DNA of 64,000 nt from Mycobacteriales bacterium. GTDB taxonomy: Bacteria; Actinomycetota; Actinomycetes; JAFAQI01. The notes beneath the pieces were generated by a model. It did not search any database, was not told the origin of the DNA, and saw nothing but the letters and a program-made list of their open reading frames with translations. The stretch covers positions 654 to 64,653 of the forward strand of contig DATJWM010000039.1 of assembly GCA_035501255.1 (NCBI GenBank), given 5' to 3'. The position numbers and the translations under genes were made by a program. Shown one piece after another: positions 13,505 through 56,794 of the stretch. Numbering within the stretch: position 1 is the stretch's first letter; every line of letters begins with the position of its first letter.

Positions 13505-13592
13505 TGACCCGTAGACGGGTTCGACTCACCCCCCCGGAGTCGAATCTTGTGGAGGCCCCCGCTTAACCCCCCCAAGCGGGGGCCTTCCTATG
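13505..13592 (+). ncRNA. 6C-family small RNA (two hairpins with C-rich loops)
   Basis: Hairpin 1 pairs GGUUCGACUC (13518-13527) with GAGUCGAAUC around the loop ACCCCCCCG. Hairpin 2 pairs GGAGGCCCCCGCUU with AAGCGGGGGCCUUCC around the loop AACCCCCCC. It sits between the HAD hydrolase and ssd, the same intergenic position as Mtb 6C/B11 (Rv3660c-Rv3661). Confidence 0.55.
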
Positions 13593-25106: not shown

Positions 25107-27896
25107 GTGGCCAGCGACACCGAAGTGCTTGACGACGGCGTGCGTCGGCTCGTGATCGTCGAGTCGCCGGCGAAGGCGCGCACGATCGCCGGTTACCTCG
25201 GCCGCGATTACGTCGTCGAGTCCTCGATCGGCCACATCCGCGACCTGCCGGGCGGCGCGGGCGAGATGCCGGCCGCACAGAAGCACCTGTGGAAGACCTA
25301 CGGGATCGACGTGGAGCACGGTTTCGAACCGGTCTACGTCATCAACCCGGACAAAAAGCAGCAGGTGGCGAAGCTGAAGGCGGCGCTGAAGGACGCTGAC
25401 GAACTCTTGCTCGCGACCGATGAGGACCGGGAAGGCGAGGCGATCGCCTGGCATCTGTTGGAGGTGCTCAAGCCCAAGGTTCCGGTGCGCCGGATGGTGT
25501 TCCACGAGATCACCCCGGCCGCGATCCGCGAGGCGGTCGACAACCCCCGCGACATCGACCTCGCACTCGTCGACGCGCAGGAGACCCGCCGGATCGTGGA
25601 CCGGTTGTACGGCTACGGGGTCTCGCCGGTGCTGTGGAAGAAGGTCATGCCGCGGCTATCGGCCGGCCGGGTGCAGTCGGTTGCGACCCGGCTCCTGGTC
25701 GAGCGCGAGCGGGCCCGGATCCGGTTTCGCTCGGCGCAGTACTGGGACCTCTCCGCGACGTTCGACACCGGTCGCGAGCCGGCGAACCCGGGTGATCCGA
25801 CCAGCTTCGAGGCCGGCCTGGTCTCGATCGACGGTTCCCGGGTGGCGACCGGACGCGATTTCGACGAGTCCGGCGCGCTGGTCCGCGACGTCGTTCACCT
25901 GGGGGAGGACGACGCCGTCGGCCTCGCTGCGCGGCTGGCCAACTCGGAGTTCTCGGTCAAGGCGGTCGAGGAACGTCCGTACCGGCGTTCGCCGTACCCG
26001 CCGTTCATGACGAGCACGCTCCAGCAGGAGGGCAGCCGCAAGTTGCGGCTCACCGCCCGGCTGGTGATGTCCCTCGCCCAGCGGCTGTACGAGAACGGCT
26101 ACATCACCTACATGCGCACCGACTCGACCACCCTGTCCGAGACGGCATTGACCGCGGCTCGCTCGCAAGCGCGTGAACTCTACGGCGCGGAGTACGTTCC
26201 CGACTCACCCCGGCAGTACAACCGCAAGGTCAAAAACGCGCAGGAGGCGCATGAGGCGATCCGCCCGGCGGGAGATAGCTTCCGGACGCCGCAGTCGGTG
26301 CGGGCCGAGTTGTCCGCCGACGAGTTTCGCCTGTACGAGCTGATCTGGCAGCGCACCGTCGCCTCGCAGATGGCCGACGCGGTCGGTCGGTCGGTGACGG
26401 TGCGAGTGGGAGGCACCTCCTCGGCCGGCGAGGTGGTCGAGTTCAGCGCGAGCGGGAAGGTGATCACCTTCCCGGGATTCCTGCGCGCCTACGTCGAGGA
26501 GAGCGAGGAGGACACCGACCGTGACGACCGGGAGCGGCGTCTGCCGCATGTCGAAGAGTCGGCGAGCCTGACCGCGTCCGGGATCGAACCGCAGTCGCAC
26601 GCGACGTCACCACCGGCGCGCTACACCGAGGCGAGCCTCGTGCGCGCACTCGAGGAACTCGGCATCGGACGACCGTCGACCTACGCGTCGATCCTCAGCA
26701 CGATCCAAGACCGCGGCTATGTCTTCAAGCGCGGTACGGCGCTGGTTCCGTCATTCACCGCGTTCGCGGTCGTCGGGTTGATGGAGCAGCACTTCGGGCG
26801 CCTTGTCGACTACGGGTTCACGGCGTCGATGGAGGACGACCTCGATGCGATCGCGAACGGCTCCGAGCAGTCCGCGGACTGGCTCGGCCGGTTCTACTTC
26901 GGGGACGGCGGTACCGACGAGGACGATCCGCACGGTCTCAAACAGCTGGTCGACGAGCGGATCGGTGAGATCGACGCCCGCGAGGTCAACTCGCTGCCGA
27001 TCGGAACGGCCGAGGACGGCGAGCCGGTCGTCGCTCGGGTCGGCCGCTACGGCCCCTATGTCCAGAAGGGTGAATTGCGGGCGAGCATCCCCGACGACAT
27101 GCCACCCGATGAGCTGACCGTCGAGCGGGCGCTTGCGCTGGTGAACAAGACCAGCGATGAACGGCTTCTCGGCGAGCATCCGCAGACCGGCGAGCCAATC
27201 CTCGCTCGAACCGGACGCTACGGCCCGTACGTCACGACTCAGCCGCTCGACGAGGGCGAGCCGAAGACGGCCTCGCTGTTCAAGGACATGTCGATCGACG
27301 AGCTGACGCTCGACGACGCCGTACGTTTGCTCTCCCTCCCCCGTGACCTGGGCGTCGACCCGCAGACGGGCGAGCCCGTGACCGCGCAAAACGGTCGCTA
27401 CGGCCCGTATGTCAGGCGAGGGAGCGAGTCACGGTCGTTGGACAGCGAGCCGGCCCTGTTCACCGTGACCCTCGACGAGGCGCTCGCCCTGCTGGCCGAA
27501 CCCAAGGCTCGCGGTCGGCGCGCCGCGGCCCCCCCGCTGCGCGAGCTCGGGGCAGACCCCGGCAGCGGCAAGCCGATGGTGGTCCGCGAAGGCCGATTCG
27601 GGGTCTACGTGACCGACGGTGAGACCAACGCCTCGCTGCGCAAGGGCGACAGCGTCGAGAAGTTGACCGTCGATCGGGCAGCGGAGTTGTTGGCCGAACG
27701 GCGGGCCCGTGGGCCGGCGACCGCCACCAAGCGCGCGCCCGTGACCAAGCGCGCCGCCAGGAAGCCCGCCGCCAAGAAGTCGGTCGCCAAGAAGACCGCG
27801 GCGAAGAAATCCGCGGCGAAGAAGGCGTCACCGAAGGGCGCGGTGGCCGACCCGTCCGGCCCGGACGAATCGGGCGCGCGGCCCGCGGCGCCGTAA
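25107..27896 (+). CDS. topA: DNA topoisomerase I with Lys/Ala-rich C-terminal tail
   Basis: Toprim domain plus the topoisomerase IA core. The actinobacterial-type basic tail reads KRAPVTKRAARKPAAKKSVAKKTAAKKSAAKK. GTG start with a GAGGAAGG Shine-Dalgarno. Confidence 0.95.
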   Translation: MASDTEVLDDGVRRLVIVESPAKARTIAGYLGRDYVVESSIGHIRDLPGGAGEMPAAQKHLWKTYGIDVEHGFEPVYVINPDKKQQVAKLKAALKDADELLLATDEDREGEAIAWHLLEVLKPKVPVRRMVFHEITPAAIREAVDNPRDIDLALVDAQETRRIVDRLYGYGVSPVLWKKVMPRLSAGRVQSVATRLLVERERARIRFRSAQYWDLSATFDTGREPANPGDPTSFEAGLVSIDGSRVATGRDFDESGALVRDVVHLGEDDAVGLAARLANSEFSVKAVEERPYRRSPYPPFMTSTLQQEGSRKLRLTARLVMSLAQRLYENGYITYMRTDSTTLSETALTAARSQARELYGAEYVPDSPRQYNRKVKNAQEAHEAIRPAGDSFRTPQSVRAELSADEFRLYELIWQRTVASQMADAVGRSVTVRVGGTSSAGEVVEFSASGKVITFPGFLRAYVEESEEDTDRDDRERRLPHVEESASLTASGIEPQSHATSPPARYTEASLVRALEELGIGRPSTYASILSTIQDRGYVFKRGTALVPSFTAFAVVGLMEQHFGRLVDYGFTASMEDDLDAIANGSEQSADWLGRFYFGDGGTDEDDPHGLKQLVDERIGEIDAREVNSLPIGTAEDGEPVVARVGRYGPYVQKGELRASIPDDMPPDELTVERALALVNKTSDERLLGEHPQTGEPILARTGRYGPYVTTQPLDEGEPKTASLFKDMSIDELTLDDAVRLLSLPRDLGVDPQTGEPVTAQNGRYGPYVRRGSESRSLDSEPALFTVTLDEALALLAEPKARGRRAAAPPLRELGADPGSGKPMVVREGRFGVYVTDGETNASLRKGDSVEKLTVDRAAELLAERRARGPATATKRAPVTKRAARKPAAKKSVAKKTAAKKSAAKKASPKGAVADPSGPDESGARPAAP

Positions 27897-28070: not shown

Positions 28071-30146
28071 GTGCGCGAGCTCAGCGAGATCGCGACCTCG
28101 CCCCCGGAGCAGAGCGAGGTTCGGTCGGTCCTTGCGATCAAGCCGTTCCGCCGGCTGTGGATCTCCCTCTCGCTGTCCAGCTTGGGCGACTGGTTGGGCT
28201 TCCTCGCGACGACGGCGCTCGCCACTGAACTGACCACGTCCTACTCCCACAAGCTCTATGCCGTGGCCGGCGTCCTGTTCGTGCGGCTGCTTCCCGCGGT
28301 CGTCATCGGTCCGGTCGCCGGCGCGTTCGCCGACCGGTTCAACCGGCGGACGACGATGGTGTTCACCGACGTGCTGCGTTTCGGGCTGGTGTTGTCGATC
28401 CCGTTGTTCCCCCACCTGTGGTGGCTGCTGGTCGCGTCCTTCCTGGTCGAGTGCAACAGCCTGTTCTGGATCCCGGCCAAGGAGGCCTCGATCCCGAATC
28501 TGGTGCCGCGGCACCTGCTCGAGTCGGCCAACCAGCTCAACCTCGTGACGACGTACGGATTCGGCGCAGTTGCCGCGTTGGTGTTCTCGGCGCTGGCCTT
28601 CCTCAATCGCGCACTCGCGCACGACGTGTCTTTCTTCCGCACCAATCCGGTCAACCTCGCGCTCTACATCGACGCGCTGACCTTCCTGATCTCCGCGTTG
28701 ACGATCGTGAACCTCACCCAGATCGCCGGCCCGCGACCGAACGGCACGGCGGCGCTCGAGTCGGGGGACCAGGTCGGGTTGTTCACCTCGATCACCGAAG
28801 GCTTGCGCTTCGTCGGTGGCCAACGCTGGCTCAAGGGTTTGGTGATCGGCGTTTGTGGCGCGACCGGTGCGGGTGCCGCCGTGATCGGGCTGTCACAGCG
28901 TTTCGCCAGCGACCTCAACGGTGGCAATGCGGCGTACGGCACGTTGTTCGGCACCGTGTTCGTCGGGCTTGCGGCCGGGATGTTCCTCGGACCGCGCCTC
29001 GCGGGCGGGTTCTCTCGCCGGCGACTCGTTGGCCTCGGGATCATCGCCTGCGGGCTAACGCTCGCGATCGAGTCCGTCGTACCGAACCTCGCGCTTGCGA
29101 TCCTGACGACCGCGGTCATGGGGTTTTGGGCCGGCCTGGTCTGGGTCGTCGCGCTGACCCTCGTCGGCTCCGAGGTGTCCGACGAGCTGCGCGGACGGAC
29201 GTTCGCGTTCATCTACAACCTGATGCGAATCGTGTTGCTGACCATGGTGGTGGCCGCTCCGGCGGTGGCCGGCGCGATCGGTCCGCACGAGCTCACCGTG
29301 GCCGACTCGCAGGTTCGCCTCGACGGCATCACCTTGACGTTGTTCGGCTTCGGCGTACTCGCGATGGTGCTCGGTTCGATCTGCTACCGGCTGATGGACG
29401 ACCGTCCGGACGTGTCGTTGTGGGCTGACCTCACCGCGGCCGCGCGCCGCAACCGACCGCAGCTCGGTCGTGGGACGACGGCGGGGCTGTTCATCGCGTT
29501 CGAAGGCGGTGAGGGCGCAGGCAAGTCGACCCAGGTCCGACGTCTCGCGGGTGTGGTGCGAGCGCTCGGCCATGAGGTTGTGGTGACTTTCGAACCCGGC
29601 GCGACGGCGATCGGCGCGCGGTTGCGGGACGTCCTGCTCGACCGGGAGAACGCCCAGATCACTGCGCTTGCGGAGGCGCTGCTCTACGCCGCAGACCGGG
29701 CCCAGCACGTCGCGACCGTGATCCGCCCGGCGATCGAACGCGGAGCGGTAGTGATCACGGACCGCTACGTGGACTCCACCGTCGCCTATCAGTCCGGTGG
29801 GCGTGGCCTACCCGAGCGTGACATCCGCCGGATCTCCGCGCTTGCCACGGGTGGCCTTCGGCCCGATCTGACGATCCTGCTCGACGTTCCGCCCTCGCTG
29901 GGGCTGCAGCGACTTACCGGCCCGGGCGACCGGATCGAGACCGAAGAGATCGAGTTCCACCAGCGGGTACGGCGTAGCTTCCGCAGCCTCGCGAACCAGC
30001 GGCGCGGTCGCTACCTGGTCATCGATGCGACCGCGAGCGTGGACCATATCCACGAGGTGGTCGTCGCGCGGGCGTTGCAGCTGATCCTGTCCGCGGACCT
30101 CGCGGACGATGCGTCCGCACGTTCGCTCGCGAAGGCCACGTCATGA
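28071..30146 (+). CDS. tmk: Polytopic MFS-like membrane domain fused to thymidylate kinase (SCO3542-type fusion)
   Basis: About 470 aa with roughly 12 TM helices. These run without stop or restart codon into a canonical Tmk (GLFIAFEGGEGAGKST...DRYVDSTVAYQ). Confidence 0.85.
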   Translation: MRELSEIATSPPEQSEVRSVLAIKPFRRLWISLSLSSLGDWLGFLATTALATELTTSYSHKLYAVAGVLFVRLLPAVVIGPVAGAFADRFNRRTTMVFTDVLRFGLVLSIPLFPHLWWLLVASFLVECNSLFWIPAKEASIPNLVPRHLLESANQLNLVTTYGFGAVAALVFSALAFLNRALAHDVSFFRTNPVNLALYIDALTFLISALTIVNLTQIAGPRPNGTAALESGDQVGLFTSITEGLRFVGGQRWLKGLVIGVCGATGAGAAVIGLSQRFASDLNGGNAAYGTLFGTVFVGLAAGMFLGPRLAGGFSRRRLVGLGIIACGLTLAIESVVPNLALAILTTAVMGFWAGLVWVVALTLVGSEVSDELRGRTFAFIYNLMRIVLLTMVVAAPAVAGAIGPHELTVADSQVRLDGITLTLFGFGVLAMVLGSICYRLMDDRPDVSLWADLTAAARRNRPQLGRGTTAGLFIAFEGGEGAGKSTQVRRLAGVVRALGHEVVVTFEPGATAIGARLRDVLLDRENAQITALAEALLYAADRAQHVATVIRPAIERGAVVITDRYVDSTVAYQSGGRGLPERDIRRISALATGGLRPDLTILLDVPPSLGLQRLTGPGDRIETEEIEFHQRVRRSFRSLANQRRGRYLVIDATASVDHIHEVVVARALQLILSADLADDASARSLAKATS

Positions 30147-31303
30147 GCGTCTTTGATGGGTTGATCGGTCAGGACTGCGTCGTCGCGCAGCTTGACACAG
30201 CATCGCGCCTGGCGGGCGCCGCACTTCGTGGTGAGCCAGGCGCCGGTCTGGCGCATGCCTGGCTGTTCACCGGCCCGCCTGGCTCGGGACGGTCGGTCGC
30301 GGCCCGCGCTTTCGCGGCCGCGCTTCAGTGTCCCGATTCAGGGTGCGGGCAGTGTCACGAGTGTGAGACCGCAATGTCGGGCGCGCACGCCGACGTCGAG
30401 CTGGTCACCCCTTCGGGGCTGTCGTACAGCGTCGCCGACACGCGCGTTCTCCTCACGCGGGCGGCCCTCGCGCCGACCCGTGGGCGCTGGCAGGTGACGA
30501 TCGTCGAGGACGCCGACCGCTTCACCGAGCAAGCGCTCAACGCGTTGCTGAAGGCGCTGGAGGAGCCGCCGCCGCACGGCATCTGGTTGTTGTGCGCTCC
30601 GTCGGTCGAGGATCTGCTGCCGACCATTCGCTCGCGTTGCCGGTTGGTGACATTGCGCGTGCCCCCCGCCGCCGCGGTCGCGGGCCAGCTGATCGGCGAG
30701 GGGATCGAACCCGACGTCGCGCATTTCGCCGCGCGCGCGGCCCAGGGACACGTCGGCCGGGCCCGGCGACTAGCGACCGATCCCGAAGCCGCGCGGCGAC
30801 GACGCGAGGTGCTTGACCTGCCTACCCGGCTCGACACGATGAGCCAATGCTTCGCGGCGGCGGCACGCCTGGTCGACGCCGCCAAGGAAGAAGCCGCGGC
30901 GGTGAGCGCCTCGCTCGACAGCACCGAGCGCGCGGCCCTCCGCGAGGCGATGGGTGACACCGGGGAGCGCGCGCCGAAGCCGCGGGGAATGGCCGGCGCC
31001 ATGTCGGACCTGGAGAAGCGGCAGCGTTCCCGAGCGACCCGCACCCAGCGCGACGCACTCGACCGGGCGCTTGTCGACCTGGCCGCCTTCTATCGCGACG
31101 TACTGATCGTGTCGCTCGGCTCACCGATCGAGCTCGTCAACCTCGACCTGCGGGACACGCTGAGCGAACTCGCGGGCAGCGCGACCCCGGAAGCCACGTT
31201 GCGCCGGATCGAGGCCGTGCTCGCCGCGCGCGAGGCGATCGACGCCAACGTGGCGCCCCTGCTCGCGGTCGAGGCGATGGCCGTCGGTCTCCTCACCGCC
31301 TGA
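30143..31303 (+). CDS. holB: DNA polymerase III subunit delta prime
   Basis: AAA+ clamp-loader motifs (HAWLFTGPPGSGRS, the zinc module CPDSGCGQCHEC, SRC motif TIRSRCR). ATGA overlap with tmk. Confidence 0.9.
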   Translation: MSVFDGLIGQDCVVAQLDTASRLAGAALRGEPGAGLAHAWLFTGPPGSGRSVAARAFAAALQCPDSGCGQCHECETAMSGAHADVELVTPSGLSYSVADTRVLLTRAALAPTRGRWQVTIVEDADRFTEQALNALLKALEEPPPHGIWLLCAPSVEDLLPTIRSRCRLVTLRVPPAAAVAGQLIGEGIEPDVAHFAARAAQGHVGRARRLATDPEAARRRREVLDLPTRLDTMSQCFAAAARLVDAAKEEAAAVSASLDSTERAALREAMGDTGERAPKPRGMAGAMSDLEKRQRSRATRTQRDALDRALVDLAAFYRDVLIVSLGSPIELVNLDLRDTLSELAGSATPEATLRRIEAVLAAREAIDANVAPLLAVEAMAVGLLTA

Positions 31304-31312
31304 CCCATCAAA

Positions 31313-31428
31313 ACGGCGTGACGCTGTTTCGCTCTGGCCGATACGGCGTGACGCTGTTTCGCTCTGGCCTATACGGCGTGACGCTGTTTCGCTCTGGCCT
31401 ATACGGCGTGACGCCGTTTTCGCACCTA
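31313..31428 (+). repeat. Tandem array A of a 30-bp repeat (about 3.8 copies), unit ACGGCGTGACGCTGTTTCGCTCTGGCC(T/G)AT
   Basis: Three full copies and one partial copy sit immediately after the holB stop. Each unit carries the near-palindrome ACGGCGTGACGC(C/T)GT. The array is in phase, so TGA recurs in the downstream gene's frame. Confidence 0.9.
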
Positions 31429-31471
31429 CGCTGGAGCGATCAAACCCTCCGTTTTCGCTGTCCTGGCTGCA

Positions 31472-32956
31472 TTGGGTGTGGCCGTCGGCTGCTCGTTCGT
31501 CGGCAGCACCGCCCCGCAAAGCGGGTCGAGTGACCTGCCGTCACCGACGAGCATCGGCACAGCCAAGCCGGGGACGACCGTCGCCGACTATTACCACCAG
31601 CATCTGTCCTGGACCTCGTGTGACGGCGGCTTCCAATGCGCGACGCTGACCGTTCCCGTCGACTACCACAAGCCCGCCGGCGCGACCCTCGGGCTGGTGG
31701 TCATCAAGGCGCCCGCGTCGGGGACCAGTCGCGGGTCACTGGTCGTCAACCCGGGCGGTCCCGGCGGCTCCGGGGTCGAGTTCGTCGCTCAAGCCGCCCC
31801 GGCGTTCTCTCAGCTGACCGAGCACTTCGACCTGGTCTCCTTCGACCCGCGCGGCGTCGGTCGTTCCGCCCCGATCCGGTGCGTGACCTCCGCGCAACTG
31901 ACCCACGGGCTGAACCTGAACCCCGCACCGACGACGCCGGCCGGAATCGGCGCGCTGGTGCGCTCGGACCGGGCGTTCGCGCGCGGATGTGCCAACCGCA
32001 ACGGTCACTACCTCGCCCACGTCGCGACCATCGACGAGGCGCGCGACCTCGATGTCCTTCGGGCTGCGCTCGGAGAGGCAAAGCTCACCTACTACGGCGC
32101 CTCCTACGGGACCTACCTCGGTGCCAAGTACGCCCAACTGTTCCCGACCCGAATTCGCGCGATGGTGCTGGACGGTGCCGTCAACCCGGCCGAGTCCACC
32201 ACCCGGTCCAACCTCGTCCAGGCGGAGGGTTTCGAGACCGACCTGCACGACATGCTTGCCGCCTGCGTGAGCGCGGGATCGTGCCCGCTGGGCTCGACCG
32301 AGGCTGAGGCCTACCAAACGGTGCGCGACCTCGAGGCCTCGATCGCCGCTCAGCCGTTGGCGGTCGGGGATCGGATGCTCGGTCCCGGGTTGTTCTTCGA
32401 AGGCCTCGCGTCGGGGTTGTACTCGACCGCCGCCTGGAAGACGCTCTGGAGCGCGCTTGCCGCCGCGAAGGACGGGGACGGCGCGAGCATGCTGGCGCTG
32501 GCCGACGATCTCACTGAGCGCAACAGCGATGGCGAGTACTCGAACCTGATCGAAGCCAACACCGCGATCGGGTGCATCGACCGGCCGTCACCGCGCTCGA
32601 TCGCCCGGTACGCCGCGACCGCGCGGGCGTTTGCCCGGCAAGCACCCGACTTCGGCGCCGCGATCGAGTACGGCTCGATGTCCTGTGCGTTTTGGCCCGT
32701 ACCGGCCGTCGAGCGCCCACACCCGGTGCACGCGTCCGGTGCGCCGCCGATTGTGGTGATCGGCACGACCCGCGACCCCGCCACGCCGTACGTGTGGGCG
32801 CAGGCGCTTGCGCACCAACTTCGCTCCGGGGTGTTGTTGACCTACGACGGCGACGGGCACACCGCCTACCTCGACGGCAATGCGTGTGTGGAGGCGGCCG
32901 TGAAAGCCTACGTCGAAGACCTCACACCACCGCCCGTCGGTACGACCTGCCGCTAG
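31472..32956 (+). CDS. S33-family tripeptidyl aminopeptidase-like alpha/beta hydrolase, probable lipoprotein (start uncertain)
   Basis: Nucleophile elbow GASYG and a TAP-like C-terminus. Only a TTG at 31472 is available after the in-frame TGA at 31409. A lipoprotein-type signal (KPSVFAVLAALGVAVGCS) precedes the TTG in frame without a canonical start. Confidence 0.7.
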   Translation: MGVAVGCSFVGSTAPQSGSSDLPSPTSIGTAKPGTTVADYYHQHLSWTSCDGGFQCATLTVPVDYHKPAGATLGLVVIKAPASGTSRGSLVVNPGGPGGSGVEFVAQAAPAFSQLTEHFDLVSFDPRGVGRSAPIRCVTSAQLTHGLNLNPAPTTPAGIGALVRSDRAFARGCANRNGHYLAHVATIDEARDLDVLRAALGEAKLTYYGASYGTYLGAKYAQLFPTRIRAMVLDGAVNPAESTTRSNLVQAEGFETDLHDMLAACVSAGSCPLGSTEAEAYQTVRDLEASIAAQPLAVGDRMLGPGLFFEGLASGLYSTAAWKTLWSALAAAKDGDGASMLALADDLTERNSDGEYSNLIEANTAIGCIDRPSPRSIARYAATARAFARQAPDFGAAIEYGSMSCAFWPVPAVERPHPVHASGAPPIVVIGTTRDPATPYVWAQALAHQLRSGVLLTYDGDGHTAYLDGNACVEAAVKAYVEDLTPPPVGTTCR

Positions 32957-36959: not shown

Positions 36960-38396
36960 TTGTCGCGTTCTCTTCAGCAACACCACGTAGTGTCGCGCGA
37001 GGTGCGTACTTCTCGGGTGGCGGCGATCGCCGTCGCGTCCATTGTGTCGGTTGCGATCGTGGTCGCCTACGCCGTGCACCGCGGGGGCGGCGCGCCGAGC
37101 GCCACCCCGAGCCTGTCCCCGACGATTGCGCCGCTTCCGATGTCATCGCCGCGCCCGTCGGTGCTCGCGCCGCTCGCGTCGACCGCGGCGGTCCCGACCC
37201 CGGCGGCGATGCGGGCCAACCTGTCGGCCGCGGCGGCACGGGTCGCGGCCGGCGCAACTCTGGTCGGCGAGGTGATCGACGCCCGGACCGGTGCGCGGTT
37301 GTGGTCGCGCGCGCCGCGCCGGGCGCAGCCGCCGGCGTCGACGGCAAAGCTGCTGACCGCCGCGGCGGCGTTGCGCGACCTCGGCCCGGCCTATCGGTTG
37401 CCCACGCAGACCCGACTCGTGGGGCGCACGGTCTACCTGGTTGGCGGCGGTGATCCGACAATCGTCCGCGGTCCGTCCTCGGCCGTTGTCTCGACGTACC
37501 CGACGCCGGCGCGCTTATCGACCCTCGCCAAGGAAACCGCGGCGGCGCTCGGTCCCGGTCGGCGGGTTCGGCTTCGCCTGGACACGAGCGCGTGGGCCGG
37601 TCCGGCGCTCGCCCGCGGGTGGAAGGCGTCGTACCTGACCGAGGGAGACATCGCCCCGCCCAGCCCGCTCGAGGTCGACGAAGGCCGGCTCGACCCGGAC
37701 AGCGAGTACTCGCCGCGGACCGCGAACCCTGCCGCTCAGGCGGGTGAGGTGTTTGCCACCCTGCTCGCGCAGGACGGAGTACAGGTGATCGGCGCGACCC
37801 GGGCCGGCACCGCTCCTGCGGCGGCGCGAACCGTGGCCCAGGTGCACTCGCCGCCGGTCGCCGCGCTCGTCCAGCAGATGCTGACCGAGAGCGACGACGA
37901 CCTGGCCGAGGCGCTCGGTCGGGCGGTGGCGATCCAGGACCATCGGCCGGCGACATTCCATGGCGCCGCAGCCGCCGTCACTTCCTCGGTCGCGGCGCTC
38001 GGCGTGCCGATCGACGGTCTGGTGCTCCATGACGCCAGCGGTTTGTCCCACCGCGATCGGGTGGCACCACGGACCCTGACCGCGGTGCTGCGGCTGGCGA
38101 CCTCGCCCGCGCAGCCGCGGATGCGCCCGATCATCGAGGGACTCCCGGTGGCGGGGCTGACCGGAACGTTGGCGCTGCGCTACCTCGGTGGACCGTCCCG
38201 GCGTGCGGCCGGGGTCCTTCGGGCCAAGACCGGGACGTTGTCCGGGGTCAACGCGCTGGCCGGTCAGGTCGTCGACCGCAGCGGTCGGCTGCTGATCTTT
38301 GACTTCCAGGCATCTAATGTCAGCGTGCCGGGCGAAACCGTACCCGCGCTGGACACGCTCGCGTCCCGGCTGGAGCATTGCGGCTGCACCGGCTGA
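36960..38396 (+). CDS. dacB: D-alanyl-D-alanine carboxypeptidase/endopeptidase (PBP4/S13 family)
   Basis: SxxK motif (ASTAKL) and a KTG triad (KTGTLSG). An N-terminal TM helix follows R-rich residues. The start may instead be the GTG at 36990. Confidence 0.8.
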
Positions 38397-38400
38397 CCGC

Positions 38401-38520
38401 ACGGCGTACCGGCGTGACGCCGCTATCGGTATGGCGTACCGGCGTGACGCCGCTATCGGTACGGCGTACCGGCGTGACGCCGCTATCGGTATGGCGTACC
38501 GGCGTGACGCCGCTTCGGCG
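38401..38520 (+). repeat. Tandem array B of a 30-bp repeat (4 copies), unit A(C/T)GGCGTACCGGCGTGACGCCGCTATCGGT
   Basis: Four head-to-tail copies lie directly after the dacB stop. The core palindrome is CGGCGTGACGCCG. Translation across the array created the spurious AYRRDAAIG x4 N-terminal extension in the ORF track. Confidence 0.9.
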
Positions 38521-38532
38521 TACGTTCTATGG

Positions 38533-39618
38533 ATGCAGCTCGTCGATTGGCGGCTCGCGGCGGCGACCGGCAGCCGGCTGGTGCCGCCGGGACCGTCGAT
38601 CGGCCTGACCGAGGCCGTGGCGACGGTCGAGGATCTGCGCCGGACCGCCGTGATCGCCGACCGCTACGTCGCGGACATCACCGGCCTGGACGTCGCGTCC
38701 GACAGCGCGGTGACCGTGGTGGTCGACCGCCCGGCCTGGATCCGGGCCAACGTCGACAGCTTCGAGCAACTCGCCGGGCCGATCATCGCGAGCCTGGTCG
38801 ACGCGCGCGGCGTCGCTCCTTCGGTCGTGACCTCGCTCGGCTCCCGTGCGGCCGGGGTCGAGGTCGGTCTGTTGCTGAGCTACCTCGCGACCAAGGTGCT
38901 GGGGCAGTTCGAGCTCCTCGGGCCACCTCGTGGGCCGGGCGGCGCGCCCGGCGTCCCCGGACGCCTCACCCTGGTCGCCCCGAACATCGTCGCGGCCGAA
39001 CGCTCGCTGGAGGTCGACCCGGCCGACTTCCGGCTGTGGGTGTGCCTGCACGAGGTCACTCACCGCACTCAATTCGCGACCGCACCGTGGCTGCACGCTC
39101 ACGTGCAGGATCTGCTGCGCGAGTTCCTGCTCGCGTCCGACCTCGATCCGGCCGCCGTGCTGCGCCGCGTACGCGACGCGGCGAGCGGGCTGGCCGGCAG
39201 CCGCCGACCAGGGCCGAATCGGAGCATGATCGAAGTCCTCCAGACGCCCGCGCAGCGGGAGATCCTCGACCGGCTGACCGGGCTGATGAGCCTTCTCGAA
39301 GGCCACGCCGACGTCGTGATGGACCAGGTCGGCCCGTCGGTCGTCCCCTCGGTCGCGACGATCCGTTCCCGATTCGAGCGCAGACGGGCCGAATCAGGCC
39401 CGGTCGCGCGACTCATCCGGCGGGTGATCGGTCTCGAGATGAAGATGCGGCAGTACGCCGAAGGAGCGGCGTTCGTGCGCGCGGTCATCGCAGCGGTCGG
39501 CATGGACGGACTCAACACCGTCTGGTCGGCGCCCGATCGGCTTCCCACCGGTGCCGAGATCAAGGAACCGGCCAGATGGCTCGCCCGGACGGGTACGCCG
39601 CCCCTGGCTCCGGCCTGA
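38533..39618 (+). CDS. Zinc-dependent metalloprotease (HExxH), Rv3626c-like
   Basis: ATG at 38533 (MQLVDWRL...). The motif is HEVTHRTQF. The gene lies in the conserved position between dacB and tilS. Confidence 0.8.
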
Positions 39619-41326: not shown

Positions 41327-43585
41327 ATGAACCTTCGCCGGACCGTCCGCGGACCCATCTTGTGGGTGATCGTGGCCATTCTGGTCGTATTGGCGTTGCT
41401 CGAGGTCGCAAACACCGGCACCAGTTACAAGTCGGTGCCACTGCCGACGATTCAGCAGGCGATCACCAACGGCGAGGTCCAGTCAGCGGTGATCAAGGAT
41501 CAGTCGCAGGTGATCGAGGTCACCCTCAAAGACGGCAAACAGATCGACGGCTCGAACAAGCTCGAGTCCGCCTACACCGTCCACTACGACGTCGACCTGG
41601 TCAATCAGGTCACCAACGCCGGGGTCACCGACCTCACGATCGATCGCGAGCACACGAACCCGTTCGTGTCGCTCATCGTTCAGTTGCTGCCGTTCGTGCT
41701 CATCGTCGTGCTGATGCTGTTCATCCTGAACCAGATGCAAGGCGGCGGCGGGCGGGTCATGCAGTTCGGCAAGGCCAAGGCCAAGCTGGTCAGCAAGGAC
41801 ACCCCGAAGACCACCTTCGCCGATGTGGCCGGCGCGGACGAGGCGATCGAGGAGCTCCAGGAGATCAAGGAGTTCCTCGAGAACCCGGCGAAGTTCCAGG
41901 CGATCGGCGCCAAGATTCCCAAGGGCGTGCTGCTCTACGGCCCGCCCGGCACCGGAAAGACCCTGCTCGCACGCGCGGTTGCGGGCGAGGCCGGCGTGCC
42001 GTTCTACTCGATCTCCGGGTCGGACTTCGTCGAGATGTTCGTCGGCGTGGGTGCGAGCCGGGTGCGCGACCTGTTCGAGCAGGCGAAGACGAACGCGCCG
42101 GCGATCATCTTCGTTGACGAGATCGACGCGGTCGGCCGGCACCGGGGCGCCGGTCTGGGTGGCGGGCACGACGAGCGCGAGCAGACTCTCAACCAGATGC
42201 TGGTCGAGATGGACGGATTCGACGTCAACCGTGGCGTGATCCTGATCGCGGCGACGAACCGGCCCGACATCCTCGACCCCGCGCTGCTTCGGCCCGGCCG
42301 TTTCGACCGGCAGATCGTGGTCGACCGGCCGGACCTTGAGGGCCGCCGCGCGATCCTGGCGGTCCATTCCAAGGGCAAGCCGTTTTCCCCCGACGTCGAT
42401 CTCGACGTCGTCGCCCGGCGTACGCCGGGTTTCACCGGCGCGGATCTCGCGAACGTCATCAACGAGGCGGCCCTGCTGACCGCGCGCAGCAGTGGCAAGA
42501 TGATCACCAACGACACCCTCGAGGAGTCGATCGATCGGGTCATGGCCGGTCCGATGCGCAAGACCCGGGTGATGAGCGACAAGGAAAAGAAGGTCACCGC
42601 TTACCACGAGGGTGGCCACGCCCTCGTCGCCTGGGCGCTGCCGAACACCGCGCCGGTCCACAAGATCAGCATCATCGCGCGCGGCCGGTCGCTCGGTCAC
42701 ACCCTCGTCCTGCCCGAAGAGGACAAGTACAACCAGACCCGCTCCGAGATGATGGACATGCTCGCCTACGCCCTCGGTGGGCGCGCGGCTGAGGAGCTCG
42801 TCTTCCACGAGCCCACTACCGGCGCTTCCAACGACATCGAGAAGGCGACCGCGACCGCCCGGGCGATGGTCATGACCTACGGCATGAGCGAGAAGCTCGG
42901 CCCGCTGAAGTTCGGGAGGGGCGAGGGCGATGTCTTCCTCGGTCGCGATCTCGGCCACGAGCGCGACTTCTCCGAGGAGGTCGCCTCCCAGATCGACGAC
43001 GAAGTCCGGGGTTTGATCGAGCGCGCCCATGATGAGGCGTGGGAGATCCTCGTCGAGTACCGCGACGTGCTCGATGACATGGTGCTTGCGCTGCTCGACA
43101 AGGAGACGTTGAGCAAGGCGGACCTCACCGAGATCTTTGCCAAGGTCGACAAGCGGCCCTACCGCAGCATCGCCCCCGCACGCGAGATCCCCAACGATCG
43201 CCCTCCGGTGATGACTCCGGCGGAGCTCGCCGCTCTCGACCCGGCCGAGCTCGCGAAGCTGACGGCTGCCAACGACCACCGCAACGGCGTCAAGGCCAAC
43301 GGCGCCCGCACCAACGGGACCCGGGCGAACGGCACGAAGGCGAACGGCACGAAGGCGAACGGCACCCGGGCGAACGGCACGAAAGCGAACGGCACCCGGG
43401 CGAGCGGCTCTCGGTCGAACGGTTCCCGGTCCACCGGCGCAAAGTCCAACGGAACCCGCAGCTCCGCGGCGAACGGAGCTTCGGCTCGCACCCGAGCCGA
43501 TCGGGAGGCCAAGCCGCCCGCGCAGCCTCGCACGCGGACCAAGCGGACCGACGGCGGTCGCCAGGCGCCCGGGACGACGGGCTGA
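41327..43585 (+). CDS. ftsH: ATP-dependent zinc metalloprotease FtsH with a repetitive C-terminal tail
   Basis: Two TM helices, an AAA domain (GPPGTGKT), the HEGGH zinc site, and an ANGT(K/R) pentapeptide tandem tail. Confidence 0.95.
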
Positions 43586-52194: not shown

Positions 52195-53095
52195 GACCTC
52201 GCTCCCTCCGGCGCAGCGTCCTGCCCGGCTCGCGGTCGGCGCCATCGGTGCCGGCCGGGTAGGGGCCGTGCTGCTCGCCGCGCTCGCCCGCGCCGGGCAC
52301 CGAGCAGTGGCCGTGTCCGCGGTCTCGCAGCCGAGCCTGCGACGGGCGGAACTGCTGATCCCGCAAGCCGAGGTCCTTGCCGCGGACGAGGTCGCGGCAC
52401 GCAGCGAGCTGTTGCTGCTTGCCGTCCCCGACGACGAGCTGGCTGATCTGGTGCGCGGTCTCGCAGGCTCCGGCGTCGTGCGTCGAGGCACGCTCGTCGT
52501 CCACACCAGCGGCGCGCACGGAATCGGGGTGCTCGCCCCCCTGACCGACACCGGTGCGCTTCCCCTTGCCCTGCACCCGGCGATGACGTTCACCGGCACG
52601 GAGGTTGATCTCCAACGGCTCGGCGGGGCGTGTTTCGGAGTCACGACGGTTGGCGACCTTCGCCCGGTGGCGGAGGCGATCGTGATCGAGATGGGCGCCG
52701 AACCGGTGTGGATCGAGGAAACCGCGCGGGCGGTCTACCACGCCGGGCTCGCGTTCGGGGCAAACAACCTCGTGACTCTCGTCGCGCAGGCCGGCGATCT
52801 GCTTCGCGCTGCCGGCGTCGAGCGCCCGCAGAGCATGCTCGGTCCGTTGCTCGGCGCTGCGCTCGACAACGCGTTGCGCCACGGCGATCGGGCGCTGACC
52901 GGTCCGGTCGCGCGCGGAGACGCGTCGACCGTTCTCGCCCATCTGGAGGCGATCTCGGCGAGCGCGCCGGAGGCCATCCGCGCCTACGTCGAGATGTCCC
53001 GCCTGACCGCGCTGCGTGCGCTTGCCGCCGGGATCCTCAGCGCCGAACGGGCGGAGGCACTGCTCGACGTGCTAGCGGCCCGGGAACGCGAGTGA
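52193..53095 (+). CDS. Rossmann-fold DUF2520 protein (Rv3603c-like)
   Basis: NAD(P)-binding GAIGAGRVG. Conserved position upstream of panC. Confidence 0.8.
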
Positions 53096-53952
53096 CCGCA
53101 CCTCGCGTCGCGCGCACGGTCGAGGAGCTTGCTCTCGCCAGAGCCGAGCTATCGGGCCGAGTGGCGGTCGTGATGACCATGGGCGCGCTGCACGAGGGTC
53201 ACCTGAACCTCATGCGGGAGGGCAGGGAACGTTCCGACTCGCTGCTGGTCACCATCTTCGTCAACCCGTTGCAGTTCGGGCCGAACGAGGACTTCGATCG
53301 CTACCCGCGCTCACTGGCCGTCGACCTGGACACGTGCGCCCGGGCGGGGGTCGACCTGGTCTTCGCGCCGTCGGTCGAGGCCATGTACCCGCCGGGCGAG
53401 CCGATTCCCTGGGTCAGCGCGGGCCATCTGGGGACCGTGCTTGAGGGTGAGTCGCGCCCGGGGCACTTCGACGGCGTGGTGACGGTCGTGGTGAAGCTCC
53501 TGCGTCTGACCCGGCCGGACCTCGCGCTGTTCGGGCAGAAGGACGCGCAGCAGCTCGCCCTGATCCGCCGCGCGGTTGCCGATCATGACCTTGCGGTGGA
53601 AATCATCGGGGTGCCAACGGTGCGCGAGCCGGACGGCCTGGCGATGTCCAGCCGTAACCGCTATCTCGACCCTCCCGGCCGGCAGGTCGCTCGCGTGCTG
53701 TCCCGCGCGCTGATGGTGGGAGCGCACGCGTCTCCGGGCGGAGCCGACGCGGTGCTCATGGCCGCGCGTTCGGTGCTGGCCGACACTCCGGAGGTGGCGG
53801 TGGACTATCTGGTGCTCGTCGACGACGCGACGTGGGAGGCACCTGACAGCACTACCACCGATGCGCGACTATTGGTCGCCGGTCGGATCGGTGCGACCAG
53901 GCTGATCGACAATGTCGCTGTTGCCCTCGGCACCCGAGACTCAGTGGGCTGA
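53092..53952 (+). CDS. panC: Pantoate--beta-alanine ligase
   Basis: GTG at 53092 forms a GTGA overlap with the upstream gene. Motifs MGALHEGHL and FVNPLQFG. Confidence 0.9.
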
Positions 53953-53961
53953 AGGAGAGAC

Positions 53962-54729
53962 GTGCTCCTCACGATCGATGTCGGCAACACCAACACGGTC
54001 ATCGGCTACTTCGACGGCGATCGCCTTGCCGAGTCGTGGCGGATCAAGACGGACACCCGCGCGACCGCGGACGAGCTGGCACTGCTGTTTCGGGGCCTGC
54101 TCGTCGACAGCCCACCGCCGGACGGCATCGCTGCCTGTTCGACCGTTCCCTCGGTGCTGCACGAATTGCGCGGCGTCTTTGCCCGCCACTACCCGACCGT
54201 CCCCGCCGTGATCGTCGAGCCGGGCGTCAAGACCGGTGTTCCGTTGCTCTACGACAACCCCAGGGAGGTCGGCGCCGACCGAATCGTCAACACCCTCGCG
54301 GCGTTCTCCCTCTACGGGGGACCGGCCATCGTCGTCGACTTCGGTACGTCGACCAACTTCGACGTCGTGAGCGACAAGGGTGAGTTCCTCGGAGGTGCGC
54401 TCGCGCCGGGGATCGAGATCTCGATCGACGCACTCGCCGCGCGCGGCGCGCGGCTGTTCAAAGTCGAGCTTGCCCGGCCTCGGACCGTGATCGCGAAGAG
54501 CACCGTCGAGGCGTTGCAGTCCGGGATGGTCTACGGGTTCGCCGGTCAGATTGACGGCCTCGTACGCCGGATCAGCGAGGAGATCGACGCGGATCCGGTC
54601 GTGATCGCGACCGGGGGCCTCGCGCCGCTCGTGATCGACGAGTGCGAGACCGTGACCGAATACGAGCCCGACCTGACTTTGATCGGGCTGCGCCTGGTCT
54701 TCGAGCGCAACGTCACCGAACTCCCATAG
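53962..54729 (+). CDS. coaX: Type III pantothenate kinase
   Basis: MLLTIDVGNTNT start with an AGGAGAGA Shine-Dalgarno. CoaX fold. Confidence 0.9.
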   Translation: MLLTIDVGNTNTVIGYFDGDRLAESWRIKTDTRATADELALLFRGLLVDSPPPDGIAACSTVPSVLHELRGVFARHYPTVPAVIVEPGVKTGVPLLYDNPREVGADRIVNTLAAFSLYGGPAIVVDFGTSTNFDVVSDKGEFLGGALAPGIEISIDALAARGARLFKVELARPRTVIAKSTVEALQSGMVYGFAGQIDGLVRRISEEIDADPVVIATGGLAPLVIDECETVTEYEPDLTLIGLRLVFERNVTELP

Positions 54730-54817
54730 CGGCGTCACGCCGGTACGGGTATGGCAGAGCGGCGTCACGCCGCTACGGGTATGGCAGAGCGGCGTCACGC
54801 CGGTATCGGGGTCGATA
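54728..54817 (+). repeat. Tandem array C of the 30-bp repeat (about 2.6 copies), reverse-complement orientation relative to array B
   Basis: The unit AGCGGCGTCACGCCGGTACGGGTATGGCAG begins inside the coaX TAG stop codon. Its reverse complement shares CGTACCGGCGTGACGCCGCT (20/20) with array B. Confidence 0.85.
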
Positions 54818-54829
54818 ACCTTGCCCGCT

Positions 54830-56347
54830 GTGAGCGACGTGACCGATCAGCCCAACGAGGTCCCGGACTCCGCCGGTTCTGCGGAGTCCGAGCAGATGCG
54901 CGTCCGCCGAGAGAAGCTTGCCCGGATCGAGGCCGACGGCGGCACCGGATATCCGGTGGGTGTGCCGCGCACGGCGACGGCGGCACAGGTGAGGCAGCGA
55001 TTCCCCGATCTGGAGGCGGATGCCTCGACCGGTCAACGGGTGTCGGTCGTGGGCCGCGTGATGCTCAAGCGCGATGGCGGCAAGCTGTGTTTCGCGACTC
55101 TGCGCGACGGGTCCGGTGAGCTCCAGGTCATGCTCTCCCTCGACCGGCTGGGCGAGGACCGGCTCGGAGCGTGGAAGCGCGACGTCGACCTCGGCGACCA
55201 CGTCAGCGTCGACGGCGAGGTGATCACCAGCAAGCGGGGCGAGCTATCGGTGCTCGCGGACGGATGGACGATGGCCGGCAAGGCCTTGCGGCCGTTGCCG
55301 GAGAAGTGGCACGGCCTTGCTGATGAGGAGACCCGGGTGCGTCGCCGGTATCTCGACCTGATCGTCAACCAGGACGCCCGCGAACTCGTGCGCGTGCGGG
55401 CCGTCGTCCTTGCGTCACTGCGTCGGACGCTGGACGCTCGCGGCTTCATCGAGGTTGAGACACCGGTTCTCCAGGTCTTGCACGGCGGCGCCGCGGCCCG
55501 CCCGTTCGCGACCCATCTCAACGCCTTCGATCTCGACATGTATCTGCGGATCGCCCTCGAACTTCCGCTCAAACGCCTGGTCGTCGGTGGCATCGAGCGG
55601 GTGTATGAGATCGGTCGCAACTTCCGCAACGAAGGCGTGGACACCTCGCACAGCCCCGAGTTCACGATGCTGGAGGCCTACGAGGCTTTCGGTGACTACG
55701 ATTCGATGGCCGAGCTGACCCGGGCGCTGGTTCTCGACGCGGCCCGCGCGCTGGGCGGCTCCGTCGTCCCGCGGGCCGGCGGTGGTGAGCTCGAGCTCGA
55801 CGTGCCTTGGCGCACGGTCACCGTGTACGGCGCCGTCAGCGAGGCGGCGGGCGAGACGATCACACCCGATACGCCGGGAGACGACCTCGTTCGGATTGCG
55901 CGCGCGCACGACGTCACGCTTCGACCCGAGTGGGATCACGCCGAGATCGTCCTCGAGCTCTACGAACAGCTCGTCGAGCACACCTTGATCGAGCCGACCT
56001 TCGTGCGCGACTACCCGGCCGATGCCCGCCCGCTCGCCCGCCCGCATCGTGAGGATCCACGCCTGGCCGAGGCCTGGGATCTGGTCATCAACGGGATCGA
56101 GCTCGCCCCGGCGTACTCCGAGCTCGTCGATCCGCTCGAGCAGCGTCGGCGGCTGACCGAGCAGTCGGCCCGCGCGGCGGGCGGCGACGCCGAGGCGATG
56201 CAGCTCGACGAGGACTTCCTGCGAGCGCTCGAGCACGGCGCACCGCCGATGGGGGGAATGGGCCTGGGCGTCGACCGCCTGATCATGCTGCTGACCGGCG
56301 TCAACATTCGTGAGGCAATCACCTTTCCATTGTTGCGGCCGCTCTAG
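54830..56347 (+). CDS. lysS: Lysine--tRNA ligase (class II)
   Basis: Collinear with Mtb LysS, including motifs 2 and 3. The start is GTG 54830 or TTG 54821. Confidence 0.9.
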   Translation: MSDVTDQPNEVPDSAGSAESEQMRVRREKLARIEADGGTGYPVGVPRTATAAQVRQRFPDLEADASTGQRVSVVGRVMLKRDGGKLCFATLRDGSGELQVMLSLDRLGEDRLGAWKRDVDLGDHVSVDGEVITSKRGELSVLADGWTMAGKALRPLPEKWHGLADEETRVRRRYLDLIVNQDARELVRVRAVVLASLRRTLDARGFIEVETPVLQVLHGGAAARPFATHLNAFDLDMYLRIALELPLKRLVVGGIERVYEIGRNFRNEGVDTSHSPEFTMLEAYEAFGDYDSMAELTRALVLDAARALGGSVVPRAGGGELELDVPWRTVTVYGAVSEAAGETITPDTPGDDLVRIARAHDVTLRPEWDHAEIVLELYEQLVEHTLIEPTFVRDYPADARPLARPHREDPRLAEAWDLVINGIELAPAYSELVDPLEQRRRLTEQSARAAGGDAEAMQLDEDFLRALEHGAPPMGGMGLGVDRLIMLLTGVNIREAITFPLLRPL

Positions 56348-56461
56348 CCCGGACCAATGCCCGGTTGATAGTTACCGGAAATCCTGTCGTGCCGCGTCGT
56401 TGTTGACGGTGGGATATGGTCGGATCGATCGGCAGTTTTCGTATTGGCGGGAGAATTCACC

Positions 56462-56794
56462 ATGGCCCAACGAGTCCAAATTCTTTTGGTCTGTGACCTG
56501 CACGACGACGACACCGCAGGCACCGAGACGGTGTCTTTCACCGTCGATGGATCCTCCTACGAGATTGACGTGTGCGATTCACACGCCAGCGAAATGCGCG
56601 AGGCATTCGCGCCGTACGTTGCCGCGGCCCGACGCAGCAGCCGCGGGTCGGCGGGTCGTCGTCGCCGTCGGGGCCGGGCGGCCGGCGCGGACCCCGGCGA
56701 GGTGCGCGCGTGGGCGCGGGCGAACAACGTCAAGGTCAGCGAGCGTGGCCGAATCAGCGCCGAAGTGCTCGACCAGTACGCCGCCGCGCACTGA
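56462..56794 (+). CDS. lsr2: Nucleoid-associated protein Lsr2
   Basis: ATG at 56462 with a GGGAGAA Shine-Dalgarno. N-terminal dimerisation domain, Arg-rich linker (GRRRRRGRAAG), and C-terminal DNA-binding RGR region similar to Mtb Lsr2. It lies between lysS and clpC1 as in mycobacteria. Confidence 0.9.
   Translation: MAQRVQILLVCDLHDDDTAGTETVSFTVDGSSYEIDVCDSHASEMREAFAPYVAAARRSSRGSAGRRRRRGRAAGADPGEVRAWARANNVKVSERGRISAEVLDQYAAAH

Follow-up and report, generated by a model that had tools for sequence, protein, structure and literature searches.

In the 64,000-nucleotide window analysed here, which comes from contig DATJWM010000039.1 of a Mycobacteriales bacterium (GenBank assembly GCA_035501255.1) and has a GC content of 69.6%, the short gap between holB and the gene for a TAP-like alpha/beta hydrolase lipoprotein is filled by a tandem repeat, array A, which is built on a small palindrome. 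Tandem Repeats Finder (TRF) detected three strong non-coding arrays with a period of 30 in the 64 kb; the other two, B and C, lie between a dacB-like gene and a Zincin_2-family gene and between coaX and lysS (Table 1). Genes of the window were identified with Pfam, and all those named here are on the plus strand. Common to A, B and C is the 13-nt palindrome CGGCGT[G/C]ACGCCG, and their units are 62-64% (A vs B) and 65-72% (B vs C) identical (repeat finder, common families), which supports the initial annotation in treating the three arrays as one repeat family. When one mismatch was allowed, the core GGCGTGACGCC matched 23 times in the window compared with 9.65 +/- 3.2 times in shuffles, none of 100 of which reached 23. 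All exact matches to it fall within the three arrays.

The four cores of array A start exactly 30 nt apart, and TTTTCGC follows the last one. A hairpin-forming palindrome is present in each unit, as had been proposed, but three of the four cores read ...GACGCTG, a G.U-compatible variant, and only the last unit holds the perfect palindrome. The array was originally described as about 3.8 copies placed directly after the holB stop; the measured value is 3.6 copies (four cores), and 10 nt lie between the stop (TGA, 31301-31303) and the first core. The TGA codons at 31319, 31349, 31379 and 31409 are indeed in frame with the downstream open reading frame (ORF). This is trivial: any period that is a multiple of 3 keeps them in frame, and the last of them, at 31409, is no more than the stop codon delimiting that ORF. 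Array B is bracketed by a direct repeat, GGCGTAC (38403-38409 and 38517-38523), and the coaX stop, TAG (54727-54729), abuts the first core of array C.

Table 1. Genes and repeat arrays of the window (window coordinates).
Feature	Position	Strand	Identification or composition	Remarks
topA	25107-27896	+	Pfam	
MFS (major facilitator superfamily)-thymidylate kinase fusion	28071-30146	+	PF05977/PF07690 + PF02223	single ORF
holB (DNA polymerase III delta')	30143-31303	+	PF13177, E=2e-38	upstream of array A
array A	31313-31419	+	type-1 units, core + TTTCGCTCTGGCCkATA	3.6 copies, 97% matches, TRF score 200, consensus ACGGCGTGACGCTGTTTCGCTCTGGCCTAT
array A cores	31314-31326, 31344-31356, 31374-31386; 31404-31416		CGGCGTGACGCTG (first three); CGGCGTGACGCCG (last)	
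TAP-like alpha/beta hydrolase lipoprotein	31439-32956	+	PF08386, PF00561	downstream of array A
DacB-like S13 D-Ala-D-Ala carboxypeptidase	36960-38396	+	PF02113, E=1.8e-77	upstream of array B; stop 13 nt before first core
array B	38403-38518	+	type-2 units, GTAC-core-CTATCGGTAyGGC	3.9 copies, 96% matches (TRF)
array B cores	38410, 38440, 38470, 38500			4, all perfect
Zincin_2-family protein	38533-39618	+	synteny with L163, L164 gene calls (PF10103)	downstream of array B; ATG 20 nt past last core
coaX (type III pantothenate kinase)	53962-54729	+	PF03309	upstream of array C
array C	54728-54810	+	type-2-like units, loop TCA	2.7 copies, 94% matches (TRF)
array C cores	54730, 54760, 54790			3, all perfect
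lysS (lysyl-tRNA synthetase)	54832-56347	+	PF00152, PF01336	downstream of array C
TilS	window	+	Pfam	

Metagenome contigs were scanned for three perfect cores, CGGCGTSACGCCG, with 23-43 bp allowed between core starts. Fifty-three loci were obtained, about 44 of which came from the Joint Genome Institute (JGI) samples Ga0335083, Ga0335085 and Ga0335076. These ~44 loci all have a period of 30, save for a first repeat of 31 in L111 and of 29 in L153, and after the removal of nine duplicates there remained 36 non-redundant arrays of three to six cores each, whose loci share nothing but the repeat with the window. Contig Ga0335085_10096583 (L170), the representative of the CoaX cluster, is 99.69% identical to window positions 52645-56476, array C included; at least one JGI sample therefore contains the window's species population, and the additional 36 arrays would most simply be other loci of the same genome. 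The family then comprises at least 39 arrays (~140 cores), plus solo copies and a doublet, within the contigs of one species population. The initial annotation had considered that its proposal would fall if the motif were unique to the three loci and had suggested a genome-wide search for copies. With at least 39 loci in the species population the motif is plainly not unique, and the metagenome scan revealed a dispersed family whose copy number varies between near-identical contigs. Contig L170 has three perfect cores at period 30, yet it was missed by the pattern scan, and many of the short-read contigs end inside arrays, so that all counts for the family are lower bounds.

The nine scan matches from other samples had periods of 25-41 and unrelated linkers. 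These loci (L114, L121, L124, L127, L129, L131, L146, L155 and L158) carry tandem arrays on CGGCGTSACGCCG in contigs of 52-73% GC, with different linkers; they could represent analogous families of hairpin arrays, or could simply follow from the use of this core for selection. A scan of genome contigs with the degenerate two-core pattern CGGCGTSACGCYG (gap 5-35) gave, among the matches listed, chance coding dimers ('GVTL' repeats) and no family members. A scan of viral contigs gave one match, a chance coding one, and a literature search with the core sequence found unrelated primers and guides only.

The repeat unit consists of a 13-nt perfect palindrome, CGGCG-TGA/TCA-CGCCG, with a 5-bp GC stem and a 3-nt loop, and of a 17-nt linker that brings the repeat to 30 bp. 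Tags extend the stem: GTAC...CTAC in type 2 and (G)GTA/TAA...TTT in the sister type 1. Type 1 is found in 22-23 arrays, including A of the window; its unit is the core plus TTTCGCTCTGGCCGGTA, the core is set in (T)AA-core-TT, and the tags are GGTA, TGTA or GTAA, never GTAG. Type 2 is found in 16 arrays, including B and C, with the core plus CTACGGGTACGGCGTAC as its unit, and its GTAC-core-CTAC becomes GTAG-core-GTAC on the other strand. The 5' GTAC is present in 12 of these 16 arrays; at the 3' side of the core, six of the 16 have CTAC (GTAG on the other strand) and three of the 16 CTAT. The two types are connected by intermediates such as CTTCGC...GCGTAC. All arrays are strictly head-to-tail and have a core at both ends. 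Units are near-identical within an array and linkers differ between arrays, which indicates local amplification. An assignment as CRISPR arrays was rejected, since the linkers within each array are identical or nearly so and are not unique spacers.

Imperfect terminal cores are rare, only three having been found with up to three mismatches in the 30-nt register beside perfect cores. There are also solo copies, for example the 23-nt perfect palindrome CGAAGCGGCGTCACGCCGCTTCG, and a two-core doublet, and these too lie beside stop codons. In L111, L119 and L153 the first unit duplicates the flank. The outer flanks may extend the palindrome over the whole array, as in L132 (CAATAA...TTATTG) and in L153, where CTGACCAA...TTGGTCAG contains both stops of a convergent gene pair. 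The centre of the loop flips between G and C inside eight arrays, and also between the window and the same-species contig L161; since TGA and TCA are reverse complements, either inversion or a simple transversion is possible. In L148 (1498-2794) a 320-aa ORF (1737-2699) has a type-2 array on either side, both oriented alike; the ORF is not HUH-like by eye, and we take it to resemble AbiEi/DUF559-type proteins. Such proteins are common in actinobacteria.

Genes on the metagenome loci were called by a frame test on GC content at third codon positions (GC3) and by a codon model trained on the window genes. According to the codon-model calls, the 36 classifiable arrays lie in 16 convergent, 14 co-directional and at most six divergent gaps, the two methods being in conflict on some of the divergent ones. 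It had been supposed that every copy sits between co-directional genes; Pfam confirms this for A, B and C, but in the family as a whole convergent gaps are the commonest. In convergent gaps both stops are typically 0-24 nt from the terminal cores. In 13 of the 14 co-directional gaps the upstream stop lies -8 to +18 nt from the first core, and the downstream start is usually farther from the array (median ~55 nt). Frequently the element itself supplies the stop codon in place of the original one. A flanking gene ends within the element in about 14 of 39 arrays, where it uses either a TAA or TAG adjoining the core, the case of coaX in the window, or the TGA of the loop (distance -8, in L142, L120, L139 and L140). 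Linkers could be scored for orientation in 13 co-directional arrays, 11 of them forward, with the hairpin preceding TTTCGC or CTAC on the sense strand, and two reverse (two-sided binomial p ~0.02). This bias relative to transcription is suggestive only.

These positions bear on the resemblance to the mycobacterial interspersed repetitive units (MIRU) that had been pointed out at first. MIRU units are 40-100 bp long, lie within operons and carry coupling ORFs. Like the MIRU and other variable-number tandem repeats (VNTR) of Mycobacterium, the present arrays are intergenic tandem repeats in an actinobacterium, with a copy number that is polymorphic between strains. Were they coupling elements of this kind, a small ORF in the tandem units would overlap the upstream stop and the downstream start; the period is indeed divisible by 3, and array A can be read through in two of the three sense frames. 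However, the unit is 30 bp and built round a hairpin, the single ORF that runs through array A (31318-31533) has no overlap with the holB stop or with the hydrolase start, and for 16 of the 36 arrays the flanking genes converge and so cannot be coupled. Because of these convergent contexts MIRU-type coupling is effectively refuted and retains hardly any probability; the size of the unit and the lack of a coupling ORF rule out the description as MIRU-like.

The history of the arrays can be followed in two sets of relatives, L163-L165 with DacB identities of 61-63% and L166-L168 with CoaX identities of 90-91%. In these syntenic relatives gene order is kept, and arrays A, B and C are all absent from the matching gaps. 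Array C is missing from L166, L167 and L168, the coaX-lysS gap being 27 nt in L168, and the dacB-zincin gap is 22 nt in L165, which retains GGCGTACGTT directly upstream of the zincin start; both of these gaps look ancestral. Array B of the window sits just 5' of GGCGTACGTT. The flanking GGCGTAC forms the end of every type-2 unit and is also ancestral upstream of the zincin gene, which fits a microhomology-guided insertion. On the evidence of these comparisons, arrays A, B and C were evidently inserted into very short gaps right after stop codons. No consistent target-site duplication was found at A or C, so no insertion-site rule can be derived. A degenerate, type-1-like array of period 30, its palindrome lost, occupies a different convergent gap in L164; the family is therefore older than the window's species, and it decays.

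Other, unrelated long hairpins are found in the gaps corresponding to arrays B and C in L163 (11520-11580) and in L166 (10790-10835, also in L167), examples being gatcatggcaaacagtgcg...cgcactctttgccatgatc and TGTCGCATTGCCCC...GGGGGCAATGCGACA. These short gaps after stops seem to be recurrent landing sites for palindromic elements. Between convergent genes of L166 (1957-2138) there is also a tandem repeat with a 77-bp period (2.4 copies, TRF score 364), which has the size of a MIRU and shows no sequence relationship to the 30-bp family.

The arrays expand and contract between strains, as is seen on comparing contigs that share 99.5-100% identity with the window or with one another. Array A has four cores in the window and three in L161, together with the loop flip and a G-to-A change, and array C has three cores in the window and four in L001. 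At two of the nine duplicated metagenome loci the copy number differs as well (L120 vs L157, L123 vs L126). Since arrays of up to four cores are shorter than the k-mer and read length, these differences are probably real.

The main rival to a functional interpretation is that the arrays are a selfish or neutral minisatellite, whose hairpins spread and expand by slippage and recombination and persist only where they are harmless, just past stops, without any function for the host. The restriction to one lineage and the absence from orthologous gaps of relatives are as expected on this account, as are the homogenised units and unstable copy number of the arrays, the decayed array in L164 and the variation of linker sequence among loci. 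It is harder to reconcile with a period that stays at 30 over some 40 arrays although linkers have diverged to ~50% identity, with the 11-to-2 orientation bias in co-directional gaps, and with the very tight placement beside the upstream stop, rather than anywhere in the gap. Period, orientation and placement could instead reflect the mechanism of insertion and not function. We consider a wholly selfish or neutral family rather unlikely.

With respect to folding, the core alone as RNA gives -6.1 kcal/mol and the variant core of array A -3.9 kcal/mol by virtue of its G.U pair. The C-to-T change in array A permits this pair on the sense RNA only; it is lost as DNA or antisense. The tagged forms are 21-23 nt long, with -12.2 kcal/mol for the type-2 hairpin and -17.3 kcal/mol for the solo 23-mer. 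Since the core is perfectly palindromic, a pair of adjacent cores forms a single extended, nested hairpin (-29 to -31 kcal/mol) like that of a REPIN, a doublet of repetitive extragenic palindromic (REP) sequences. Over a whole array (A, B or C) the sense strand would form a single continuous nested stem of -56 to -73 kcal/mol, and for array A the value of -68.9 kcal/mol is far better than that of shuffles (z = -5.75). At the arrays Rfam gave nothing at gathering thresholds, and at E values up to 10 only microRNA and sRNA noise far below threshold. No resemblance was seen to the familiar consensus sequences of actinobacterial operator sites (parS, SOS box, CRP and others). A canonical intrinsic terminator, taken as a hairpin followed by a U-tract (at least five T in eight), was rejected, there being only TTT after the stem in type 1.

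The nearest actinobacterial analogue is the tuberculosis Rho-independent terminator (TRIT), a conserved bidirectional palindrome found at about -8 from stops in 147 copies in M. tuberculosis and reported as confined to Mycobacterium (PMC3152330). Like the present repeat it is by description a conserved palindrome narrowly placed at stop codons; it is a single hairpin, in contrast to the tandem arrays seen here. If the arrays were non-canonical, factor-assisted terminators of this type, a palindrome at the stop codon would act in both directions. The palindromes do overlap or abut stops, including at -8, and occur in both orientations at convergent genes, which is the same positional signature as that of TRIT in Mycobacterium (PMC3152330). 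Against this, the arrays have no U-tract, and a statement in PMC3993855 is that mycobacterial RNA polymerase needs one for intrinsic termination; by Term-seq TRITs themselves overlap only 2-4% of mapped M. tuberculosis termini (10.1101/2022.06.01.494293), and the co-directional arrays lie within probable operons. Such a role appears improbable.

Phased binding of a protein to DNA has also been considered. The 13-bp palindrome might be bound by a dimer every 30 bp, or about three helical turns, with gyrase or a nucleoid protein recruited to convergent gene ends, as at BIME-2 (bacterial interspersed mosaic element) of E. coli. The perfect dyad of the core and the strictly fixed period are compatible with this, as is the family's enrichment at the ends of convergent genes, which are places of positive supercoil accumulation. 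Precedent comes from REP/BIME sequences, for which binding of gyrase and integration host factor is cited in a passage of PMC8266576. On the other hand, the orientation bias and the G.U variant of array A point to a strand-specific level, RNA or single-stranded DNA; no candidate binding protein is linked to the arrays, and 30 bp is not an exact multiple of 10.5. We regard this explanation as slightly less probable still than terminators of the TRIT type.

The closest match is with REP/BIME sequences of the GTAG superfamily, which includes the palindromic units (PU) of E. coli, Pseudomonas REP, Stenotrophomonas SMAG, Marinomonas REP-Mb and Thauera GTAG-1. A survey of REPs (PMC3733652) lists five features, all of which hold for the 30-bp family: convergent REPs lie <20 bp from both 3' ends; unidirectional REPs lie near the upstream 3' end, and how far they are from the following gene varies; the TAG stop is often furnished by a GTAG terminus; tandem reiteration of clusters takes in pieces of flanking DNA; and stems may be as short as 5 bp, as in Thauera GTAG-1, which was found via a tandem-repeat database. 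The stop-codon position, the bias to convergent and unidirectional gaps and the supplied stops bear out the term REP-like in the initial annotation (PMC3733652). The short GC-rich stem-loop with its 3-nt loop and short tag, dispersed in extragenic copies, is likewise REP-like. Bona fide REPs include perfect 10-nt palindromes with an interruption of 3-4 nt and GTAG ahead (PMC8266576), which is the type-2 architecture read on one strand. The size expected of REPs, a palindrome of 20-50 nt, is reached at the short end, as in Thauera GTAG-1, by the 13-nt core or the 21-23 nt of core with tags.

There are also clear differences. The 30-bp family is strictly head-to-tail with a fixed period, whereas most REP families have few or no head-to-tail dimers; unlike REPINs and BIMEs, its arrays contain no pairs in inverted orientation. 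Its core is a perfect palindrome with tags on both sides, and GTAG is poorly conserved, in contrast to its presence as an unpaired tetranucleotide at one end in >90% of the members of most REP families. In Neisseria intergenic mosaic elements (NIME) linkers are variable and 50-150 bp long. The present arrays are like NIME/dRS3 in that a short palindromic repeat alternates with linkers in intergenic arrays, and unlike them in the 17-nt linker and the fixed period; dRS3 has been classed as a CGTC-type REP (PMC3733652). The hosts in the REP surveys consulted are Proteobacteria, Cyanobacteria, Chloroflexi, the PVC (Planctomycetes-Verrucomicrobia-Chlamydiae) group, Chlorobi, Bacteroidetes, Spirochaetes and Thermotogae; Actinobacteria, to which the present host, an uncultured bacterium of Mycobacteriales/Frankiales type, belongs, are not among them.

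Array A is accordingly read as one locus of a dispersed, lineage-specific family of REP-like hairpin repeats with a role at the RNA level, a statement which as a whole we rate at a probability of about 0.55. That a REP-like, dispersed family of hairpin repeats has been inserted at gene ends, the descriptive part, is very probable; a function of the arrays at the RNA level, suggested by analogy, has by itself a chance somewhat short of even. REP elements as a kind are known; what is new is the lineage of the host, the strictly head-to-tail layout with its 30-bp period, and a perfect palindrome tagged on both sides.

If the arrays behave like REP/BIME in E. coli, for which such effects have been shown, the upstream mRNA would end in the array; the stacked GC hairpins could then shield this message against 3'-5' exonucleases and partially stop read-through into the gene that follows. 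The E. coli REPs have also been reported to interfere with terminating ribosomes. A similar hindrance of terminating ribosomes may occur here, since the arrays start no more than 15 nt from the stop codon. Slipped-strand mispairing between identical cores would account for the changes in copy number. Spread from locus to locus would need a copy-and-insert step, for which the REP-associated tyrosine transposase (RAYT, TnpA-REP), an enzyme of the HUH class, is the precedent.

Several results weigh against this reading. Any function of the arrays, including the mRNA stabilisation, attenuation or protein binding proposed in the initial annotation, we infer wholly by analogy with known REPs. Folding of the sense strands of B and C is no better than that of GC-matched shuffles (z = -1.2 and -1.3), because any sequence so rich in GC folds well, and the arrays lack a U-tract and none was flagged by a terminator scan. 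Up to six arrays may lie in divergent gaps, which are promoter regions, and the array without palindrome in L164 suggests weak constraint. The copy-number differences come from short-read assemblies. RAYT cannot act without GTAG, a tag that only ~6 of 16 type-2 arrays and no type-1 array possess. Finally, no IS200- or RAYT-like ORF was found in ~480 kb of window and loci (phmmer, E > 2), which is a weak test in view of the IS200 TnpA and E. coli RayT sequences used as queries.

A bolder view goes further: the family may be an autonomous Actinomycetota REP/REPIN system with its own mobilising enzyme, in which the head-to-tail arrays of double-tagged cores are nested REPINs, the 30-bp period is selected, and insertion is actively targeted to the vicinity of stops, which are replaced. 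We hold this conjunction to be improbable. Were the period selected, its length of 10 codons and about three helical turns might serve, for example, phased protein binding at gene ends, or in-frame tolerance where an element lands in a gene's last codons.

The REPs are a classic and mechanistically unsettled component of proteobacterial genomes, and a REP-like family in an uncultured lineage of the Mycobacteriales type widens their known host range. The 13-nt core and 30-bp unit offer a simple system for studying how hairpins spread, and whether hairpins 0-15 nt past stops tune mRNA stability, read-through or translation termination in high-GC bacteria without canonical terminators. The arrays are also usable as VNTR markers for strain tracking in metagenomes.

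As to the genes beside the arrays, the nearest named homologues of DacB and CoaX are proteins of metagenome-assembled genomes labelled Frankiaceae, Frankiales or Mycobacteriales bacterium; for HolB an exact-match look-up was negative. The N-terminus of the Zincin_2-family protein, MQLVDW, aligns with VQLVDW of the relatives. The C-terminus of CoaX is four residues longer than in L168 and ends in the TAG that abuts array C; lysS starts at GTG 54832 or ATG 54896, and GTGAGCGAC is conserved in L168. The hydrolase lipoprotein next to array A probably starts at ATC 31439, from which its signal peptide, IKPSVFAVLAALGVAVGC, is read, the first canonical start being TTG 31472. In window positions 31433-31495 no ATG, GTG or TTG precedes the signal peptide, and in the relative L163 (4073-4140) the hydrolase also has ATC, 7 nt past GAGGAG and followed by RRLFGLATVVLLAVLTGC. 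The ATC looks like a conserved non-canonical start codon.

The fusion of a major facilitator and a thymidylate kinase is kept in L163 (761-2833, 690 aa). Two tandem repeats of 15 nt in the window are coding: one at 43294-43422 specifies an Asn-Gly-Thr-Arg/Lys-Ala pentapeptide towards the 3' end of ORF 41327-43585, which takes the place of FtsH in the syntenic gene order, and the other, at 27747-27824, is a KPAAK repeat in the C-terminal tail of TopA. The only Rfam families found at gathering thresholds in the window were tRNA-Thr and 6C RNA, the latter (RF01066, 66 bits) at 13515-13591, as expected in an actinobacterium.

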